DNA from: Clostridia bacterium | GTDB lineage: Bacteria; Bacillota; Clostridia; Christensenellales; CAG-314 | DNA length: 64,000 nt | Direction: 5' to 3' | NCBI GenBank assembly: GCA_900769665.1 | Contig: CAAGHL010000070.1 | Coordinates: 13,620-77,619 of the forward strand | Shown: piece by piece, positions 3,960-62,651 of the stretch | Position numbering within the stretch: the stretch's first letter is position 1 | How the letters are laid out: the number at the start of each line of letters is the position of its first letter | Position numbers and translations under genes: made by a program | The notes under the pieces: generated by a model | Databases searched by the model: none | What the model was told of the DNA's origin: nothing | The model's input: the letters and a program-made list of their open reading frames with translations, nothing else

Positions 3960-4478
3960 TTACACTTTCTTTGGTTCGGGGTAATCGACTCCGAAAGTTT
4001 CCACAGTGACGGACTTCATGATTTGGTCGTAAAACGGCTTGTCGTACGGGTCGGTGTACTCGTCGGCGATTTCGTCTACAACGTTCATACCCTCGATGAC
4101 TTTGCCGAACGCCGCATATTTTCCGTCAAGGTGAGGTGCGTCGGCGTGCATAATGAAAAATTGACTGCCTGCGCTGTCGGGTTGCATGGAACGCGCCATA
4201 CTGATGACGCCGCGCTCGTGGTAGATGTCGTTGGCAAAGCCGTTGTCGGAAAACTCACCCTTAATGCGGTATCCGGGGCCGCCCGTTCCGTTACCTTTGG
4301 GGCAACCGCCTTGTATCATAAATCCGCGTATTACACGATGAAATTTCAATCCGTTGTAGAAGCCTTTGTTGGCAAGAGAAATAAAGTTGTTGACTGTGTT
4401 GGGGGCAATTTCGGGATAAAGTTCCACCTTGATTTGTTTACCGTTTTCCATTGTGATGGTAGCAATCGGATTAGTCAT
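3960..4478 (-). CDS. ppiB: Peptidyl-prolyl cis-trans isomerase, cyclophilin type
   Basis: Cyclophilin motifs [13 protein letters not shown] and SQFFIM. Start trimmed to ATG 4476-4478 behind AAGGAGGA. Confidence 0.9.
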
Positions 4479-14045: not shown

Positions 14046-14225
14046 CACTACCCCGACCACCCACCCCTCAAGGTCAAAGAACTTTATTATAAAGTAGCAT
14101 GCGAGGCGCGACCTACTTTGTCGCAACGTGGCAATCTCGCGGAAGCACCATTGTCGCAAGGTTGCTTTCCAGCAGATCCCCACGTCGCGACAAGTACAGT
14201 CGCTCCTCGGGATGACACTTTATTG
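14046..14225 (+). repeat. A-type intergenic repeat, full-length copy (A1)
   Basis: The left part (cactaccccga ccaccc..ctcaaggtcaaagaactttatta) matches 16491-16500 plus 16659-16712. The right part, 14126-14216, is the reverse complement of 18910-18994. Confidence 0.8.
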
Positions 14226-14236
14226 CATACTAACAC

Positions 14237-14390
14237 TCACTTAATCATTTTCTACCAACTAAGTGTTTGGTGGGCAAGGTGTTGCCCCACGGCGACATCG
14301 GAGCGTAGGCACATACAACTGAGAGCGGTCAACAAGTGATATTGCTCTACGCGGAGCGAGCATCAGGCGTTCGCAGTGGGACAATGCCTT
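14237..14390 (-). repeat. B-type repeat, inverted copy (B2), MITE-like
   Basis: The reverse complement aligns to 16502-16658 at about 80% identity over about 100 nt (ctgcgaacgc.tga.gctcgctccgc..agagcaata ... gcctacgctccgatgtcgc.gtg.ggcaac). Confidence 0.7.
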
Positions 14391-14614: not shown

Positions 14615-16399
14615 ATGAGTTACACCAACCGCAATGAAATCCCCGCAAAATATACTTGGAACCTCGGCGACATCTTCGCCACACCAGACAAATGGGAAGA
14701 GGCTTTCAACCAACTGTCCAAGGAGTACACCGCTTTGTGCGACTTCCAAGGCAAGCTTGCAAACCGCGACAGTTTGCTTGAATTTTTCAAGCTGTCCGAC
14801 AAAATCGACCTCAAATTGGAGCAACTGTACTGCTACGCTTCCATGGCTTACAACGAGGACAGCCAAGACTCCGTACGTCAAGCACGTTTCAGCAAAATTT
14901 ACGGCTTACTCAACAAGTATGACGCCGCAACAAGCTTTGTTTCTCCGGAATTGTCGGCAATCCCCGACGAGCAACTGAAAGCATTCATTGCCGATCCCGC
15001 TTTTTCCGACTACGACGTCATCCTTACCAACCTACTTGAAGGCAAAGCGCACATTTTGTCCGAAGCGGAAGAAAAACTCATGGCAAAAGTCGGCACGTTC
15101 TCCGAGCAATTCCACGAAGTTTTCAATCGCTTGGACAGCGGCGACATCAAGTTTGACAAAATAACCGTCAACGGCGAGGAAGTCCAACTCGGTCACGGCA
15201 CATACAGTATGCTGTTGCAAAACAAGGATCAAGCTGTGCGTAAACTTGCGTTTGAAACCTACTACAAGGCATATGTCGACGTAATAAATACGCTTGCCGG
15301 CGTTTACGAAGGCAGCGTAAAGGCGGACTGGTTCCGCGCCGAAGCTCGTCACTTCAACTCCACAATGGAAATGGCACTGTTCTACGAACATGTAGACAAA
15401 GCCGTGTACGACAACCTTATCAAATGCACGCACGAGTCGCTTGCGCCACTACATCGCTACATTGCGCTACGCAAAAAACTGATGGGTTTGGAAACGCTCA
15501 ACATGTACGACTTGTACGTGTCCATATTTGAAGACGCCGACATCTCCTGCGAATACGAAGAGGCTTGCGAGCTTGTGTTGAAAGGCTTGGCACCCCTCGG
15601 CGAAGATTACCTAAAAGTCGTGCGCGAAGCATTTGCCAACCGCTGGATTGACGTACACGAAACGCCGACAAAGCGTAGCGGCGCATACAGCATGGGCGTA
15701 AAGGGCGTACACCCCTACATGCTACTCAACTACCAAAAAACCACGCACGACATCTTTACAATCGCGCACGAAATGGGACACTCCATGCACAGCTATTACA
15801 GCGAGTTGACGCAACCGCAAGCAAAAAGCGACTACAAGATTTTCGTTGCCGAAGTTGCTTCCACATGCAACGAAGTGTTGTTGCTAAAATATTTGCTAAA
15901 AACGGAAACCGATCCCGCCGTCAAAAAATACTTGCTGCAATACTACTTGGATATGTTGCGCACCACGCTGTACCGTCAAACAATGTTTGCCGAGTTTGAA
16001 CAAATTTCCCACGACATGGCGGAAAAGGGCGTACCTTTCACCACCGAAGCACTGTGCGAAAAATACTTGGCACTCAACAAAATGTACTACGGCGAAGCAG
16101 TCCACCACAACGAAGAAATCAAGTACGAGTGGGCGCGTATACCGCACTTTTACCGCGCATTTTACGTGTACAAGTACGCTACCGGTATCATTTCGGCAGT
16201 GTGCATAGCGGAAAAAATTCTCAGCGAAGGCGCACCCGCATTGGCGGCTTACCGCAAGTTTTTGACGCTTGGCGGCAGCATGGACCCCGTGTCGGAATTG
16301 AAAGTGGCAGGCGTAGACCTTACGACGGAAGAACCCTTCAAAATCGTTGCAAAGAGCTTCGAAGACACGCTCAACCAATTGGAAGAACTGTGTAAGTAA
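14615..16399 (+). CDS. pepF: Oligoendopeptidase F (M3B metallopeptidase)
   Basis: HEMGH zinc site (IAHEMGHSMH) and a 594-aa length typical of M3B. ORF 14456..16399 trimmed to ATG 14615 behind GAAGGAG. Confidence 0.9.
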   Translation: MSYTNRNEIPAKYTWNLGDIFATPDKWEEAFNQLSKEYTALCDFQGKLANRDSLLEFFKLSDKIDLKLEQLYCYASMAYNEDSQDSVRQARFSKIYGLLNKYDAATSFVSPELSAIPDEQLKAFIADPAFSDYDVILTNLLEGKAHILSEAEEKLMAKVGTFSEQFHEVFNRLDSGDIKFDKITVNGEEVQLGHGTYSMLLQNKDQAVRKLAFETYYKAYVDVINTLAGVYEGSVKADWFRAEARHFNSTMEMALFYEHVDKAVYDNLIKCTHESLAPLHRYIALRKKLMGLETLNMYDLYVSIFEDADISCEYEEACELVLKGLAPLGEDYLKVVREAFANRWIDVHETPTKRSGAYSMGVKGVHPYMLLNYQKTTHDIFTIAHEMGHSMHSYYSELTQPQAKSDYKIFVAEVASTCNEVLLLKYLLKTETDPAVKKYLLQYYLDMLRTTLYRQTMFAEFEQISHDMAEKGVPFTTEALCEKYLALNKMYYGEAVHHNEEIKYEWARIPHFYRAFYVYKYATGIISAVCIAEKILSEGAPALAAYRKFLTLGGSMDPVSELKVAGVDLTTEEPFKIVAKSFEDTLNQLEELCK

Positions 16400-16405
16400 A
16401 AATAC

Positions 16406-16445
16406 AACGTCGATGCGCTTGTCGTGTCGACGTTCTTTTTTGTTT
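16406..16445 (+). terminator. Rho-independent terminator after pepF
   Basis: AACGTCGA, loop, TCGACGTT, followed by CTTTTTTTGTTTTG. Confidence 0.8.
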
Positions 16446-16501
16446 TGTTCCCACCGACTTGTTTGCAAGATATGGTCGGTTTGCACGAACCACTACCCCG
16501 A

Positions 16502-16658
16502 AAATCGCCTCGCTATTACCACGCTGCGAACGCTTGAAGCTCGCTCCGCACAGAGCAATATAGATATAGTCCGCTTTCAATCTTATGCGCCTACGCTCCG
16601 ATGTCGCTGTGTGGCAACAACTCGGCTCCACCCCTTCGGGAAAGGCAATGATTTTTTT
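16502..16658 (+). repeat. B-type repeat, forward copy (B3), apparently inserted into an A-type repeat
   Basis: It separates cactaccccga (16491-16501) from ccacccctcaaggtc (16659-), which are contiguous at 14046-14075. GA is present at both junctions. The ends aaatcgcct and aggcaatgattt form an imperfect terminal inverted repeat. Confidence 0.65.
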
Positions 16659-16735
16659 GACCACCCCTCAAGGTCAAAGGACTTTATTACAACGCACGAC
16701 CTATTGTTGCAATCCGTTTGAAAGCAACCTTTGCA
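16659..16735 (+). repeat. A-type repeat, partial copy (A2)
   Basis: gaccacccctcaaggtcaaaggactttattacaacgcacgacctattgttgcaa matches 14055-14126. Confidence 0.7.
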
Positions 16736-16758
16736 AAACTATAACATTTCCTTAAAAC

Positions 16759-16812
16759 TGCTCAATATTTTTGCCGAATATTGCTCAATGAAAACGCCGA
16801 ATATTGCTCAAT
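16759..16812 (+). promoter_or_regulatory. Three direct repeats of TGCTCAAT phased exactly 23 bp apart (candidate regulator-binding array)
   Basis: TGCTCAAT at 16759-16766, 16782-16789 and 16805-16812. The last two sit within identical 17-mers, GCCGAATATTGCTCAAT (16773-16789 and 16796-16812). Confidence 0.5.
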
Positions 16813-16840
16813 CCTTGACAAATGGCGAAAAAAACTAACG

Positions 16841-16869
16841 TTGACAAGTAGGTCTTACTACAATATAAA
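16841..16869 (+). promoter_or_regulatory. Orphan near-consensus sigma-A promoter
   Basis: TTGACA (16841-16846), 17 nt, TATAAA (16864-16869). There is no plus-strand CDS downstream before the hairpin at 17082-17110. Confidence 0.5.
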
Positions 16870-16875
16870 GCCGAC

Positions 16876-17115
16876 ATCGACAATAAAGTTACCGTCAACA
16901 ATTGTCGGGATACTCGCAAAGGGCGCTCTTGTTTCCCCAAGGGCAGGGGAAGGCATAGATGCGAGGGCGTTCGCCGCAAGGACTGCGGCTCGGCTGAGGA
17001 CACGTTTTACACTTCGGCACTACTTGATCGGCTTAATGAGCCAAATACATAGTAGGCAATGTTATTTTCATTATGCAAGAAGCCCTCTTGCGGATTTTCC
17101 GCAAGAGGGCCTTGA
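16876..17115 (+). ncRNA. Candidate ~240-nt orphan transcript (sRNA or leader remnant); hypothetical
   Basis: Bounded by the orphan promoter and a 13-bp-stem hairpin. Local hairpins include CCGACA..TGTCGG and GCCGCA..TGCGGC. The only coding potential is a 12-codon micro-ORF (16959-16997) behind GGGGAAGG. No known RNA family recognised. Confidence 0.2.
17082..17110. terminator. Strong hairpin terminator downstream of the pilin-like gene (possibly bidirectional)
   Basis: GCCCTCTTGCGGA, TTT, TCCGCAAGAGGGC. On the minus strand it is followed by a T-rich tract. Confidence 0.75.
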
Positions 17116-17172
17116 TTGTTGGATCGAGTTGTCAATTGCGATAGAATACTCTATCGATTGTCGGGCAAACAC

Positions 17173-18810
17173 CTATTTGGAAACGATGTACCACGTGTCG
17201 CTACCAATTACTTCCGAAGTTGTTTTGCAACCTTCGCCGAGCAGAATTTTGCCAGTATAAGCGTTCTCAGGATCAACTGGTGTAACGCCGGGATTGTAAT
17301 TTTTGAATTTACCACCATTTACAGTAATCGTGCAACCTGCAGTGGCGCTATCTTCATGATTCAAAACATAAGATATTTTGTTGCTTGGTGTCGCAGTTTC
17401 AAAAGTACCACCATTGATAGTAACAGTTGCCTTACTTCCGCTAGAGCGTGCGGTACACACATAGATACAAGAGGTTTGTTCTGATGTTCCGTAGAAGTGA
17501 CCACCGTTGATTGTCAACTTGCCGTAGTTTCCTGCACGTACAGCACTTGTTACTTTGTTGGTATATGTCTTGTCCGATCCAATAACAGCACCGGTTTGGG
17601 CTTCACTACTATCATTTATGGTCAATTTACCACCCGAACCACCGATGTAGAATACAGATCCGTTGTTGGGCTTAACGCCATCAGCATATTCAAGTTTAAC
17701 AGTATGTCCGTTCAAATCAATGACAAATTTTTTGCCTGACATGTAGATTTCATCTGTAACGGTAACATCGGCAATAAATTTCAAATATGCGCCTTTCTTT
17801 AATTTTTCAATCTTTAATGCTTGCTCGCCGGTTGCGATCAAATAAGGACTTTCTTCCGTGCCAAGACCACCAACGAAATTGTTAACATCATCTTTTACGA
17901 TATCCACTTTCTTATCTTTCTTTACTTCAGCAGGAATAGTTGTAGCATTTTTAACCACATCCAATACGCTATCATCAGTAGCTGCAACAAGATTTATTTT
18001 TGCACCTTCTTCTGCTACAATTTTAACATCACCAGCACCATTATCAGTAGGAGATACAAGAACAACGTTTACTACAGCTTGCTTAGTAATCTCAAGTTTT
18101 CCTTCCTTAATTGTAAGGTTGCCACGAACTTCACCCTTTTCATAATAAGAGTGTGGAGCAACAGCAGTAATATTAACTTTATCAACAGTGCCATGGTGTT
18201 CCACACTATCAGTTACGGCGTCAATCGTAAGGTTGCCACCCTTTGTACGAATAACAACATCTTGCGCATTTGTATTTGCCACGTACTTAAGTTCGTCAAC
18301 TGTAGTTTCACCTGCATCGAAACCAACCTTTACTTCGAGAGGCTTTTCGGCTGAAGTTTCAATAGTTTCACCTGCCCAGTAGATAGAATACTTTTGGTTT
18401 TCTACTGCGGGAATTTCCTTGCTAAGGAATTGCCAATATTGATAATCCTTGACGTCCTTGTTGGTTTGCGTGTCGGGAATACCCGTGATACCTTTTTCCG
18501 TTTTGTAAACAAAGCAGTAGTTGACGCTGTCCCACAAAATTTCGTGTTCGCTTACGCTTGCGCTGATTTTTGCAACGTCAAAACCTGCGTTTTCCTTGAC
18601 TGCGCCGAGTACGTCGTAGACCGTGTCGTACTTTTCGGTGCTGAGTGCGATTGCCTTGTTGAGGTTAGACACAAGTGCCTCGTCCTTGGCTTGGTTTGCC
18701 TTGCTGATAAGACTGCTGAATGTAGGGATAAGTACTGCCGCAAGCAATGCTATTACGGCAACAACAATGATCAGTTCCACCAAAGTGAAACCTTTTTTAC
18801 TATTTTTCAT
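17173..18810 (-). CDS. Large type IV pilin-like protein (prepilin N-terminal cleavage/methylation domain plus ~510-aa C-terminal domain)
   Basis: N-terminus MKNSKKG/FTLVELIIVVAVIALLAAVLIPTF. The C-terminal third has repeated strands KLTINGGHFYG, TVTINGGTFET and ITVNGGKFKN. ATG 18808-18810 behind AAGGAGAA. Confidence 0.8.
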   Translation of the reverse strand: MKNSKKGFTLVELIIVVAVIALLAAVLIPTFSSLISKANQAKDEALVSNLNKAIALSTEKYDTVYDVLGAVKENAGFDVAKISASVSEHEILWDSVNYCFVYKTEKGITGIPDTQTNKDVKDYQYWQFLSKEIPAVENQKYSIYWAGETIETSAEKPLEVKVGFDAGETTVDELKYVANTNAQDVVIRTKGGNLTIDAVTDSVEHHGTVDKVNITAVAPHSYYEKGEVRGNLTIKEGKLEITKQAVVNVVLVSPTDNGAGDVKIVAEEGAKINLVAATDDSVLDVVKNATTIPAEVKKDKKVDIVKDDVNNFVGGLGTEESPYLIATGEQALKIEKLKKGAYLKFIADVTVTDEIYMSGKKFVIDLNGHTVKLEYADGVKPNNGSVFYIGGSGGKLTINDSSEAQTGAVIGSDKTYTNKVTSAVRAGNYGKLTINGGHFYGTSEQTSCIYVCTARSSGSKATVTINGGTFETATPSNKISYVLNHEDSATAGCTITVNGGKFKNYNPGVTPVDPENAYTGKILLGEGCKTTSEVIGSDTWYIVSK

Positions 18811-18909
18811 ATGAAATATTCTCCTTAAGATTACGCCACTATGAATCCATATGTGGTCTTACTAATACTCTGTTTTGCACATTTGCCTCAAATTGACACA
18901 TTGAATTAT

Positions 18910-18994
18910 GTCATCCCGAGGAGCGACATTTGCGACGTGGGGATCTGCTGGAAAGCACCCTTATTACAATGGCGCTTCCGCGAGATTGCCACGT
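18910..18994 (-). repeat. A-type repeat, inverted partial copy (A3)
   Basis: The reverse complement matches 14126-14216 (about 78 of 85 aligned bases, one 6-nt indel). Confidence 0.8.
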
Positions 18995-19170
18995 CAGCCG
19001 ACGTTCACGGCTTCCTCGCAATGACAATCACACGCAACGCAACCATTTTGTCGGCGTCTTTGCCATAATGTCATTACTTACAAATGTACACGTTTTTTGC
19101 ATACGCATCGATTTTTCGCACGCAAAAATACCCTTCACCAAGGTATGGTGCGGGTTACAGGAAGAATATT

Positions 19171-37816: not shown

Positions 37817-37959
37817 AACTACAATCCCCTCTTTACTAAATTACTAGTCAGGACAACTCCACAATCGTCCATACACTACCGCAACCGTCAACAGTTTTAC
37901 AAACTTGGCAATGCGTACTTAGACATTACACACTGCATAGCTACTTGCATGGCGTAAGT

Positions 37960-38022
37960 TTAACGCCAAAGTATCCGTCGTCACACTCTCAAAATGGTTA
38001 GTGATAGCTAAATTAACCCTAC
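37960..38022 (-). repeat. 64-bp GTAGGGTTAATTT... element, copy 1
   Basis: About 89% identical to 58478-58541. Its first bases (minus strand gTAGggtt) supply the stop codon of the 38019..39299 gene. Confidence 0.8.
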
Positions 38023-45720: not shown

Positions 45721-47058
45721 TCACTCTTGCACCAACGGGAATAGCATATCCACCATAAACATATTGTCCTCGGTGCGCATTACCAAGTCGCCGTTATACC
45801 TCTCGCATATCACACGCATACTTTTGCAACCGTAGCCGTGGTAAAAGTCGTTATCCTTTGTGGTAAGCGGCAATCCGTCGCGGAAAACGAGCTCGGACTC
45901 GAACCAGTTTTCGATATGCACCGACAATATCTTACCTTTCGCCACCACTTTGAAACGAATAAAGCGTTTTTCGAGGTCGTCCAGTTTCATCACGGCGTCA
46001 ATGGCGTTGTCTATTGCGTTACCGAACAGCGAGTAGATGTCCTCTATCCTCATAAAGGACAGCTGCTTGCCGTCAGCCATTACGGTCAAACGAATATTAT
46101 TCTTTTGGCAAATGAGGGATTTTTCCGTCAAGATTATGTCCAACGCTTCATTGTCCGTTTTGACAACCGAGTCGTAGATGTTGATTGCGTTTTCTATTTC
46201 TCGTATAGTTTCGCTACTGACCTTGTCGTTTTGTCCGATAAGTCGTATTTGATGTTTCAGATCGTGACACTTTAGGTTAATAAGGTCTATGTTTTCCTTG
46301 GATATTGCATACTGTTCCTGTTCCTGCGTAAGCAGTCTGTTTACCACGTCCAACTCGTCGTGCATTTTTTTGTTGGACAGCAACCCGAACTGCAAACTGA
46401 CGGCAAACACACAACACAAAATGTTATATATTGCCGCGACAATAAGGTTTACCTTGTCGTAGTTGTTGTCGCTGTTGTACACCACTACGGAGTTTAGGAT
46501 GATGTCTATCAACAGTATTGCAATGGACAACAACAAGAAGAACACGTTGTTTACCTTCAAGTCCTCATGCTTGCCTATCCTACGGGAGAACAACACATAC
46601 ATCAACACATACACTATCGAGTAGCTGTCCATGTAGAAGCAAATTGTAAAAATGTTTATCTTGGGTGCGACGGCGTAACCGTACACTCCCATAGCCATGC
46701 CTTCGCCAAAGCCCGTGGCGGTAAGCAACAAATTGTTTATTTCGTATGCCAAGTGTTGTGTAGTATAACCGGCAATTGCGCAAAACAAGATATTGACCCA
46801 CGGCTCGTCGTAGCAAATTTTGAATGACAACGTAGCAATTGTAAACAACGCCAAAAACATCAGCGAAGTATACCACGCATTGTAAAAGAAAATAGGAAAC
46901 AAAAACGCGCTTACAAAGCACACCGCCATTGCGGCAACAAACCGCAACGCAAAGTGAGTGCGATGGCGAAGATTGCGAGTAAACAAACAACACGCCACGA
47001 TAAGCTCCGCCATGAATACCAGCTTGTACCAAAACAAAGTAGTAAACTCAAACATCAT
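45721..47058 (-). CDS. GHKL sensor histidine kinase, AgrC/VirS-like (polytopic N-terminus)
   Basis: 6-7 TM segments, then CHDLKHQ, NAIDNAIDA and HGYGCKSM ATPase motifs. ATGA overlap with the response-regulator gene. Confidence 0.85.
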   Translation of the reverse strand: MMFEFTTLFWYKLVFMAELIVACCLFTRNLRHRTHFALRFVAAMAVCFVSAFLFPIFFYNAWYTSLMFLALFTIATLSFKICYDEPWVNILFCAIAGYTTQHLAYEINNLLLTATGFGEGMAMGVYGYAVAPKINIFTICFYMDSYSIVYVLMYVLFSRRIGKHEDLKVNNVFFLLLSIAILLIDIILNSVVVYNSDNNYDKVNLIVAAIYNILCCVFAVSLQFGLLSNKKMHDELDVVNRLLTQEQEQYAISKENIDLINLKCHDLKHQIRLIGQNDKVSSETIREIENAINIYDSVVKTDNEALDIILTEKSLICQKNNIRLTVMADGKQLSFMRIEDIYSLFGNAIDNAIDAVMKLDDLEKRFIRFKVVAKGKILSVHIENWFESELVFRDGLPLTTKDNDFYHGYGCKSMRVICERYNGDLVMRTEDNMFMVDMLFPLVQE

Positions 47059-47759
47059 CTTTCTCCCAAAAACTCGTTGAGTCTGCGTACGAATTCCTTG
47101 CGCTTTTGTCTGCTAAGAGTCAGCGTTTGGTCACCCACTTGCACTTCAAAACCATCCACGGCGTACACGTAGCGTAGGTTGATTAAATACCAACTGTTGC
47201 CGCGCGCAAAGTATTTCAACTCTTTGCGGCTTTCTAACTCTTTCAGCGTACCCCAACTTTCTATGTCGCCCTCGTCGGTATGAAATACAAGTCTGTGTCC
47301 GCAAACCTCGATGTAGGAAACGGCGTTTGCCGACACGCGCCGAATGCCGTTGACTGTTTTTATGGTCAACTCGCAAGTTTTGGTTGCCACAATTGCGTGC
47401 ATAATGCGGTTGAGCATAGAGGAAAAAGCGTAATACGTAATAGGTTTGACAATGAAGTCGGCGGCACCAACCGAGTAGCCTTTTGCAGCAAACTGTTGCA
47501 TGTTGGTGACAAACACTATGGTCACAAGCTGATCAAGCTCTCGCAACTTGGCGGAGATTTCCATGCCGTTGCTGTCGGGTAACTCGATGTCCATAAACAC
47601 GATGTCGACATCCGACTTGTAATTGGACAAAAAGGATTCGCCGTCGGTGTAGACGGTAATGTTGAACAAAACGTTGTTTTTCTCGGAATATTTCTTCAAA
47701 AACTCTTTCAGCTTGTCCGCCGCGGCGGTTTCGTCTTCAACAATCGAAACACAAATCAT
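47055..47759 (-). CDS. LytTR-family response regulator
   Basis: Receiver domain (VSIVEDE...DIVFMDIELPD...) plus a C-terminal LytTR DNA-binding domain (ISYIEVCGHRLVFHT...). Confidence 0.9.
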   Translation of the reverse strand: MICVSIVEDETAAADKLKEFLKKYSEKNNVLFNITVYTDGESFLSNYKSDVDIVFMDIELPDSNGMEISAKLRELDQLVTIVFVTNMQQFAAKGYSVGAADFIVKPITYYAFSSMLNRIMHAIVATKTCELTIKTVNGIRRVSANAVSYIEVCGHRLVFHTDEGDIESWGTLKELESRKELKYFARGNSWYLINLRYVYAVDGFEVQVGDQTLTLSRQKRKEFVRRLNEFLGER

Positions 47760-49674: not shown

Positions 49675-49714
49675 CCCAACCTAACGTTGACGCAACCTAA
49701 CGTTGACGAGTAGG
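49668..49714 (+). repeat. Tandem 16-mer repeat (2 x CAACCTAACGTTGACG plus partial unit) starting 2 nt after the YolD-like stop
   Basis: 49677-49715 is identical to the reverse complement of 56650-56688. Followed by a G8 run (49713-49720). Confidence 0.85.
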
Positions 49715-56649: not shown

Positions 56650-56690
56650 TCCTACTCGTCAACGTTAGGTTGCGTCAACGTTAGGTTGCC
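56650..56690 (-). repeat. Tandem 16-mer repeat starting 2 nt after the RluA-family stop codon
   Basis: Minus strand reads TGA gg caacctaacgttgacg caacctaacgttgacg agtagg, identical to 49677-49715. Confidence 0.85.
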
Positions 56691-58388: not shown

Positions 58389-58477
58389 ATTAAATAAGTA
58401 TAAACTATTTTACGATTTTTCTCAACTGTTTTGTAGACGATAACAAAATTTGATTTACGTTGTACACAAAAGAAAGA

Positions 58478-58541
58478 TTAACGCCTAAGTATCCGCCGTC
58501 ACACTCGCAATAATGATTAGTGATAGCCAAATTAACCCTAC
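58478..58541 (-). repeat. 64-bp GTAGGGTTAATTT... element, copy 2
   Basis: About 89% identical to 37960-38022 with sharp boundaries. Lies in a 715-bp gene-free gap. Confidence 0.8.
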
Positions 58542-62226: not shown

Positions 62227-62278
62227 ATCTTCTCCTTGTAAAAGTTAGTGATTTTTTGTGTGTTTTATTTTTATTTTT

Positions 62279-62317
62279 GCGGGAAAACCCCTTTTTGTAA
62301 AAAGCGGGTTTTCCCGC
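62279..62317. other. 12-bp perfect hairpin ~50 nt upstream of the ileS ATG, containing a nested GCGGG-AAAA-CCCGC-T5 terminator-like stem on the minus strand (62299-62317)
   Basis: GCGGGAAAACCC (62279-62290) pairs with GGGTTTTCCCGC (62306-62317). Confidence 0.5.
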
Positions 62318-62651
62318 ACCCTTTCCCCAAAAACTTTGGGTAAATGGGAGAGGTTGGAGATGGGTGCGAAGGGCGACAACCGGGCGGTGCGCCGCACCAT
62401 AAACGAGCTTCTTTTTGCAATTTTGCACTGCGCGTCCTTAATCTTACGGCAAGGCAACGGCGGAGAGTGCGGTAGCCACTTAAAGAAACTGTGCGCTACG
62501 TATCCTTAGACATACCCGAGAGCAACGGCGGAGATTGGTGCAGATTGTGGCAACAGTTGCTCGACACACACGCCCAATGTACTAAGTCGTACATGACGGG
62601 TGGGTTGGGCAAGCGTAGCCGCAAGATGTGCCGATATACGCCGTTGTCCCA

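Follow-up and report, generated by a model that had tools for sequence, protein, structure and literature searches.

The stretch of DNA analysed here (hereafter the window) comprises 64,000 nucleotides and is matched by a human-gut metagenome scaffold; among named organisms, those nearest to it are uncultured Clostridia of the Candidatus Fimimonas / 'CAG:1435' group. The locus under study lies between pepF and a convergent gene for a protein with a prepilin-type N-terminal methylation motif (hereafter N_methyl), and a first-pass annotation, made from the letters alone, had read it as an orphan promoter behind phased repeats that drives a regulator-controlled small RNA or leader peptide. The features on which the following argument depends are given below, with PDC-S01 denoting the candidate defence gene that occupies this site in sister strains.

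14615..16399, plus strand: pepF, encoding an M3 oligoendopeptidase F (Pfam Peptidase_M3 and M3_N), the left anchor of the locus.
16524-16622, plus strand: dispersed repeat R1, with an inverted copy at 14277-14376 on the minus strand (blastn against the window).
16661-16692, plus strand: dispersed repeat R2, with a copy at 14061-14092 (blastn against the window, 26-mer search).
16730..16830, plus strand: block homologous to the PDC-S01 upstream region of sister strains (blastn 80-84%, alignment A4).
16754..16812, plus strand: array of three 23-bp direct-repeat units with TGCTCAAT cores (23-column gap in alignment A4).
16815..16820, plus strand: TTGACA, the putative -35 box of P1, the ancestral PDC-S01 promoter (sister-strain alignment).
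16831..17071, plus strand: strain-specific filler of ~240 nt (no blastn match to L082 or L209).
16835..16852, plus strand: 18-mer CTAACGTTGACAAGTAGG, a dispersed repeat carrying the second TTGACA (three exact copies in the window, 0.08 expected).
16841..16869, plus strand: P2, a near-consensus sigma-70-type promoter of TTGACA, 17 nt and TATAAA (consensus match).
16959..16997, plus strand: micro-ORF of 12 codons, unsupported as a gene (within filler absent from sister strains; no downstream gene).
17082..17110, both strands: hairpin read as a bidirectional terminator, with a perfect 13-bp stem and a 3-nt loop (conserved in alignment A5).
17173..18810, minus strand: N_methyl gene of 545 aa (Pfam N_methyl), the convergent right anchor.

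The window PepF, found as an exact protein on ENA contig L001, is encoded by a gene with its own terminator at 16406-16434 (terminator scan). Further downstream, a motif search places TGCTCAAT cores at 16759, 16782 and 16805, with start-to-start spacings of 23 and 23, which agrees with the exact 23-bp period first described; the 64-kb window has just these three copies. The identical 17-mers of the first-pass annotation were also confirmed, with GCCGAATATTGCTCAAT at 16773 and 16796 and a chance expectation of 0.13 even with 3 mismatches allowed, and reading of the sequence bears out both TTGACA boxes (16815-16820 and 16841-16846) and, 17 nt past the second, TATAAA (16864-16869). The resemblance of phased direct repeats abutting a -35 box to a protein-binding array stands in a general sense. 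R1 and R2 (16524..16692) are not part of the array. A SigD-type -10 box (GCCGATAT) within GCCGAATAT was considered and dropped, as it contains an extra base and is accounted for by the repeat unit.

The locus was compared with the sister-strain contigs L082, L209 and L210, which encode a PepF 98% identical to that of the window. All three carry the same array with four units, compared to three in the window. For example, the four units downstream of pepF in L082 (TGCTCAAT, TGCTCAGT, TGCTCAAT and TGTTCAAT, spaced at exactly 23 nt) are followed by ccTTGACA, 17 nt, TATAAT and, after ~30 nt, the ATG of a 429-aa AAA_14/DUF4143 protein. In all three contigs the last array unit lies directly against the -35 box, and the promoter reads ccTTGACAaacgacgaaatatttgcTATAAT with the ATG ~30 nt later. 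The order in L209 (pepF, array, AAA_14/DUF4143 gene, hairpin, N_methyl on the minus strand, orf148 on the minus strand, DUF4037 on the minus strand) is that of the window plus one gene; L082 and L210 agree, the latter with a GIY-YIG gene ahead of the array. The N_methyl orthologues lie at 4383..6014 in L209 and 3987..5594 in L210.

Homology between the window and the sister contigs (blastn; alignments A4 and A5) extends over 16730-16830, where the partners are L082 2412-2537, L209 2452-2565 and L210 2402-2548, and resumes at ~17072-17079. Within this block the window array is without exactly one 23-nt unit, seen as a 23-column gap in A4. The block ends between the -35 box and the expected -10 position: similarity stops 10 nt past the first TTGACA, where the sister strains run on to TATAAT, and no AAA_14 gene was found by tblastn in the 64-kb window. 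This combination identifies the first TTGACA as the orphaned -35 box left by a promoter that has lost both its -10 box and its gene, so that P1 is predicted to be dead in the window. The array therefore belongs with the first TTGACA, which in sister strains is the -35 box of the missing AAA_14/DUF4143 gene, and not with the second promoter that it had been thought to control. The filler stands in for ~1.7 kb of L209 comprising the -10 box, the 5'UTR, the 429-codon gene and a 3' spacer. At the right-hand border, the hairpin sits 62 nt past the stop of the minus-strand N_methyl gene, and its L210 counterpart begins ~15 nt beyond the stop codon of PDC-S01 and ~60 nt beyond that of N_methyl; it is the predicted terminator common to the convergent PDC-S01 (lost here) and N_methyl genes. 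Thus, the 13-bp stem of the strong hairpin described earlier is real, but the hairpin is not private to the proposed RNA unit.

These alignments show a leftover PDC-S01 upstream module, made up of the repeats and the first TTGACA, with the gene replaced by filler and the hairpin remaining as the old shared terminator. In the proposed history of this strain, the entire PDC-S01 gene would have given way to ~240 nt of repeat-derived filler, along with its 5'UTR, its -10 box and a single repeat unit. That the gene was lost here, and not gained by the sister strains, is inferred because the array and the -35 box stayed behind. The array in the window is thus most likely a relic without its gene, although the intact state of all three cores and the near-consensus P2 may point to some residual function. 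Gene order around pepF is not kept among relatives at 73-85% protein identity, and blastn of the intergenic region against 80 pepF loci of related genomes (L002-L081) found no match, nor did comparison with phage and plasmid collections.

Other differences among the strains were also observed at this locus. The GIY-YIG gene of L210 (1603-1899) encodes a stand-alone 98-aa nuclease between pepF and the array, and its presence there is another sign of a variable hotspot locus. The N_methyl gene of the window is just 75-77% identical in DNA to those of L209 and L210, compared to 94% for the adjoining pepF, which suggests fast evolution or allelic exchange.

The product of the lost gene matches PADLOC candidate PDC-S01 (E 1.6e-59) and contains AAA_14 and DUF4143 domains. 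PDC-S01 proteins are AAA_14 ATPases fused to a DUF4143 PD-(D/E)XK nuclease-like domain (COG1373), and their genes are candidates for anti-phage defence. Previous work ranks PDC-S01 as the 4th commonest defence candidate across prokaryotes and the top single locus in rumen genomes, with no validated activity or mechanism (PMC12988326, PMC13356809). Surveys describe the gene as often multi-copy per genome and enriched in archaea, and elsewhere the family appears in surveys or fold classifications with its function unvalidated. The literature searched, whose coverage is incomplete, makes no mention of repeats upstream of DUF4143, COG1373 or PDC-S01 genes. The window resembles other PDC-S01 loci in that its array is the upstream module found at the same sister locus, and in its strain-variable presence within a very abundant family; it differs in having the array without the gene.

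The association between arrays and PDC-S01 was investigated in both directions, with a "PDC-S01 upstream repeat array" class defined from 26 loci. Going from array to gene, metagenomes were scanned for three TGYTCART cores spaced at 23 nt, which yielded 9 loci in which a PDC-S01 homologue (23-51% identity) starts 13-60 nt downstream, at G+C contents from 0.26 to 0.71; one of the nine, L148, has its cores in the opposite orientation. The TGYTCART core precedes PDC-S01 in L082, L209, L210, L211, L103, L113, L139, L140, L149, L181 and L206. The scan also returned many plain satellites, and an attempt to part these from operator-like arrays by spacer identity failed because true PDC-S01 arrays can have identical spacers. 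Going from gene to array, 18 PDC-S01 genes were selected by protein similarity alone (12 from plasmids, spanning nine genera; 4 from gut 'Bacteriophage sp.' contigs; L211; and L055), and the self-similarity of their upstream regions was scored at lags 8-40. All except L055, a distant homologue at 23% identity, have their own direct-repeat array just upstream (17/18). The best lag was 23 in 14/18 and 22 in 3/18, with 15/18 scoring at least 29, whereas none of 429 control upstream regions reached 29 at lag 22 or 23; one of these two lags was best in 5.6% of the controls, which is the chance rate.

The repeat unit changes along with the protein. The TGYTCART core is absent from all 16 plasmid and phage-contig genes; instead, lineage-specific cores are found, and proteobacteria have, for example, ATTGGACG, Collinsella AATCGTCCCAA or AATCTGGTTAA, and B. 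ovatus AAGCCAAACTGCCGAATAATATT. L211, whose protein is 76% identical to that of L082, has a TGCTCA-type core, with its last unit inside the promoter spacer; Firmicutes-type promoters thus show two placements of the last unit, against the -35 box or within the spacer. All aligned members (19/19) match PDC-S01, AAA_14 and DUF4143. The arrays are conserved in position, pitch and copy number (3-4, up to ~5), are chromosomal in many hosts and always lie 5' of the PDC-S01 gene near its start codon, and PDC-S01 is the sole constantly linked gene; a second, inverted array beyond the far side of the gene was found in none of 9 loci. A third homology search, with a profile query, recovered the same close cluster and no added diversity. 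Arrays with a 22-23-bp period thus lie upstream of PDC-S01 genes across bacterial phyla, and this family-wide array appears to be undescribed. The window itself has three direct repeats at the class period and the TGYTCART subfamily core (TGCTCAAT three times), and no AAA_14/DUF4143 gene within ~70 nt downstream on the same strand. Because this gene is absent from the window whereas L082, L209 and L210 have it at the orthologous position, the array of the window is classified as an orphaned one.

Several further loci carry related repeats. Gene-less TGYTCART arrays were seen on the minus strand of L101 (180-233), L130 (2960-3059) and L196 (10558-10634). Those of L101 and L130 are followed, as in the window, by a hairpin and a convergent ORF, and L130 also has TTGACA...TATAAA; a glyoxalase-like ORF comes after the L196 array. 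It seems to be a recurrent event that the PDC-S01 coding region is lost and the array left behind. A second class of TGTTCART arrays, with 23-nt spacing, variable spacers and no PDC-S01, was found in L105, L107, L110, L122, L123, L131, L168, L197 and L198, often at contig ends and in L110 ~200 nt before the N-terminus of an IS1634-like transposase; these may be mobile-element repeats. On two Collinsella plasmids, a gene for a small helix-turn-helix regulator (L215 238-459, L216 167-403) lies directly upstream of the PDC-S01 array, and this regulator is a possible alternative binder of the array in that lineage.

The lineage-specific cores and the constant gene linkage lead us to infer self-recognition, in which the PDC-S01 protein would bind the array of its own gene, and from the position of the array, which abuts or overlaps the promoter, such binding would most likely be repressive and probably amounts to autoregulation. 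In this candidate mechanism, several PDC-S01 protomers would sit side by side on the array at the 22-23-bp pitch, contact DNA through a helix-turn-helix-like segment between the ATPase and nuclease domains, and repress their own gene. A family alignment shows invariant ExD...ExK nuclease residues and, between the ATPase and the nuclease motif, a conserved helix S/T-R-x-T-x-x-x-Y-x-x-x-L at ~255-268; the Sigma54_DBD helix-turn-helix gives a weak match at 217-266. A structure model, itself poor (pLDDT 48, shallow alignment), has three helices in the segment between the domains, for which Foldseek returned a weak winged-helix match and no significant fold match, and PDB sequence and profile searches with the PDC-S01 protein matched the P-loop and nothing beyond, yielding no relative of solved structure. 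A DNA-binding domain in PDC-S01 is accordingly a putative assignment. Counted against self-binding are the inverted cores of L148, the absence of an array in L055, the Collinsella helix-turn-helix gene and the second TGTTCART class without PDC-S01.

A comparable arrangement is known from archaeal Orc1/Cdc6, an AAA+ ATPase with a helix-turn-helix-type domain that is encoded beside origin recognition boxes (ORB elements), which are usually inverted around an AT-rich unwinding region. PDC-S01 shares with it the order of an AAA+ ATPase followed by a (putative) helix-turn-helix-type domain and the location of the gene beside repeated sites. The PDC-S01 repeats, however, are direct and on one side of the gene, the protein has a nuclease-like domain, and no sequence relation was detected beyond the P-loop.

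Considered as a whole, the explanation that we regard as probable is that the locus is a relic PDC-S01 upstream module whose array is a candidate cognate, likely autorepressing, site of the PDC-S01 protein. A bolder generalisation, toward which we are about evenly disposed with some leaning against it, is that the strictly phased 22-23-bp arrays are the cognate sites of PDC-S01 in every lineage, with one protomer per repeat and a core-coevolving code, and would act as an off-switch or sensor of defence, with orphan arrays being either footprints of gene loss or decoys. For the window, the relic reading means that what looked like an orphan regulatory unit is a scar left by a strain-variable defence-gene candidate and that no new small RNA is needed. 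For the family, a cis-element whose core changes alongside the protein provides a direct handle on PDC-S01: the arrays predict sequence-specific DNA binding, probably with autorepression, supply ready binding substrates for each homologue, and allow gene-less footprints of past defence genes to be found in genomes.

The DNA that took the place of the gene contains a promoter of its own. The second TTGACA falls within the 18-mer CTAACGTTGACRAGTAGG, which recurs at 49697 (plus strand) and 56668 (minus strand), with one of these two copies in another convergent intergenic region. The possibility that the 18-mer is a common promoter was rejected, as the other two copies are without a good -10 box at 17 nt. 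The pattern TTGACA-N16-18-TATAA[AT] has 2 matches in 64 kb, against a block-shuffle mean of 0.07, and P2 is probably able to fire. Most likely it is a fortuitous promoter within filler DNA, and any RNA made from it a by-product of the rearrangement. Only 16970-17020 of the filler matches L210 (2161-2211, at a different position there), and this segment is a dispersed element.

The best surviving alternative, which we nevertheless judge unlikely, is that the array is still working, with a PDC-S01 paralogue elsewhere in the genome binding it in trans, either for decoy or titration or for control of P2 and a ~210-nt RNA. It would account for the perfect TGCTCAAT sequence of all three cores despite divergence of the spacers from those of the sister strains, and for a rare near-consensus promoter placed 29 nt after the last core. 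The gene-less arrays of L101, L130 and L196, followed by a promoter and/or hairpin, and the many PDC-S01 copies per genome reported in surveys also speak for it. However, neither a PDC-S01 gene nor a further TGCTCAAT is present in the 64-kb window, the sister strains lack the RNA region, which is partly composed of dispersed repeats, and intact cores may merely mean that the deletion is recent.

We consider it more doubtful still that the DNA from TTGACA-17-TATAAA to the hairpin is an independent small-RNA or leader-peptide gene controlled by a repeat-bound regulator, as the first-pass annotation had it. By consensus matching this DNA does have a near-consensus promoter and a hairpin terminator, the latter common to the neighbouring genes, and the predicted RNA folds better than shuffled sequences (z = -4.6 with the hairpin, -2.6 without it), but such a score is expected because the stretch is made of palindromic repeat fragments. 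The Rfam check proposed earlier, made at gathering thresholds for the whole window and with E values of up to 10 allowed for 16350-17250, returned nothing credible; a scan of the window for tRNA and tmRNA genes was likewise empty. The region 16831-17071 has no homologue in L082 or L209 and no match in the 80 related pepF loci, and the proposed RNA itself (16876-17080), partly dispersed repeat fragments, is without a counterpart in the three sister contigs, L210 offering just a 51-nt repeat match. The repeats, moreover, belong to another promoter. A leader peptide or attenuator fares no better, since the micro-ORF is followed by the hairpin and a convergent gene and there is no same-strand gene downstream to regulate. 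The statement that the micro-ORF is the only plus-strand ORF holds for ATG starts; a TTG-initiated ORF of 159 codons (16781..17260) crosses the region and the hairpin and runs antisense into the next gene, and having no Pfam match and no sister-strain counterpart, it is not taken to be a gene.

Plasmid iterons are among the known systems closest to the arrays in layout. In systems with Rep autoregulation, such as P1 incC/RepA and pSC101 RepA, the Rep protein binds repeats at its own promoter. Both kinds of locus have 3-5 direct repeats spaced at about two helical turns, at or overlapping a promoter, with a protein-specific repeat, PDC-S01 binding being putative. It is nonetheless highly improbable that the repeats of the window serve not in gene control but as replication-origin iterons or as subterminal binding sites within a mobile element. 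In favour of this reading, plasmid iterons are typically direct repeats of ~22 bp, many copies of PDC-S01 are on plasmids, the TGTTCART class occurs at contig ends and once near the IS1634-like transposase N-terminus, and the locus varies between strains. On the other hand, the array is flanked by pepF and N_methyl, no Rep, transposase or integrase gene lies beside it in the window, L082, L209 or L210, and no far-side inverted array was seen in the 9 loci. The chromosomal location of arrays in many hosts, always 5' of the gene near the start codon, also argues for a gene-control region. Unlike iterons, the present array has no initiator, origin features or plasmid context, and PDC-S01 arrays keep strictly to a pitch of 22-23 bp across phyla and are linked to an AAA+ ATPase-nuclease fusion; the arrangement belongs neither to the iterons nor to the Orc1/Cdc6 class.

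Virtually no weight is given to binding of the array by the LytTR response regulator encoded at 47055..47759 (minus strand): LytTR proteins do bind direct repeats at roughly two-turn spacing and LytTR/OmpR-type operators do lie just upstream of a -35 box, but this gene is 30 kb away and unlinked, and the present arrays accompany PDC-S01, not response regulators, across unrelated phyla, with cores that change along with PDC-S01, so that the link first suggested is unneeded. The LytTR gene is real but no orphan, as it overlaps by 4 nt a GHKL (HATPase_c_5) kinase gene at 45721..47058 (minus strand), with which it forms an ordinary two-component pair.

Repeats of other kinds are scattered through the window and its relatives. 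The intergenic regions around pepF are mosaics of short repeats. The R1 copies are ~100-nt inverted repeats, 82% identical, on either side of pepF. With respect to the cellulase and cation-efflux genes, pepF points the other way in the relative L083, a difference suggestive of an earlier inversion of the pepF segment. A perfect 38-nt inverted repeat (49677-49714 on the plus strand and 56651-56688 on the minus strand) consists of two tandem AACCTAACGTTGACG units plus AGTAGG, and its last 18 nt recur at 16835. Its copies, ~6.9 kb apart, enclose genes for a uridine kinase, a Tyr phosphatase and a LysR regulator; the repeats were rejected as transposon ends because they bracket ordinary housekeeping genes, and may serve as a substrate for inversion or represent a dispersed repeat. 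A REP/MITE-like palindromic family (GTCATYSCGAGG...GACGTGGSRATCT...) is spread over the intergenic regions of this species, with copies in the window at 18909-19025 and 14126-14217 (minus strand), in L209 at 4211-4277, and in L210 at 1512-1580, 2018-2075 and 2365-2431. Likewise, a 68-nt direct repeat, 90% identical, is shared by two distant intergenic regions (58474-58541 and 37956-38022), and a 42-nt near-perfect palindrome is present at 62278-62318.
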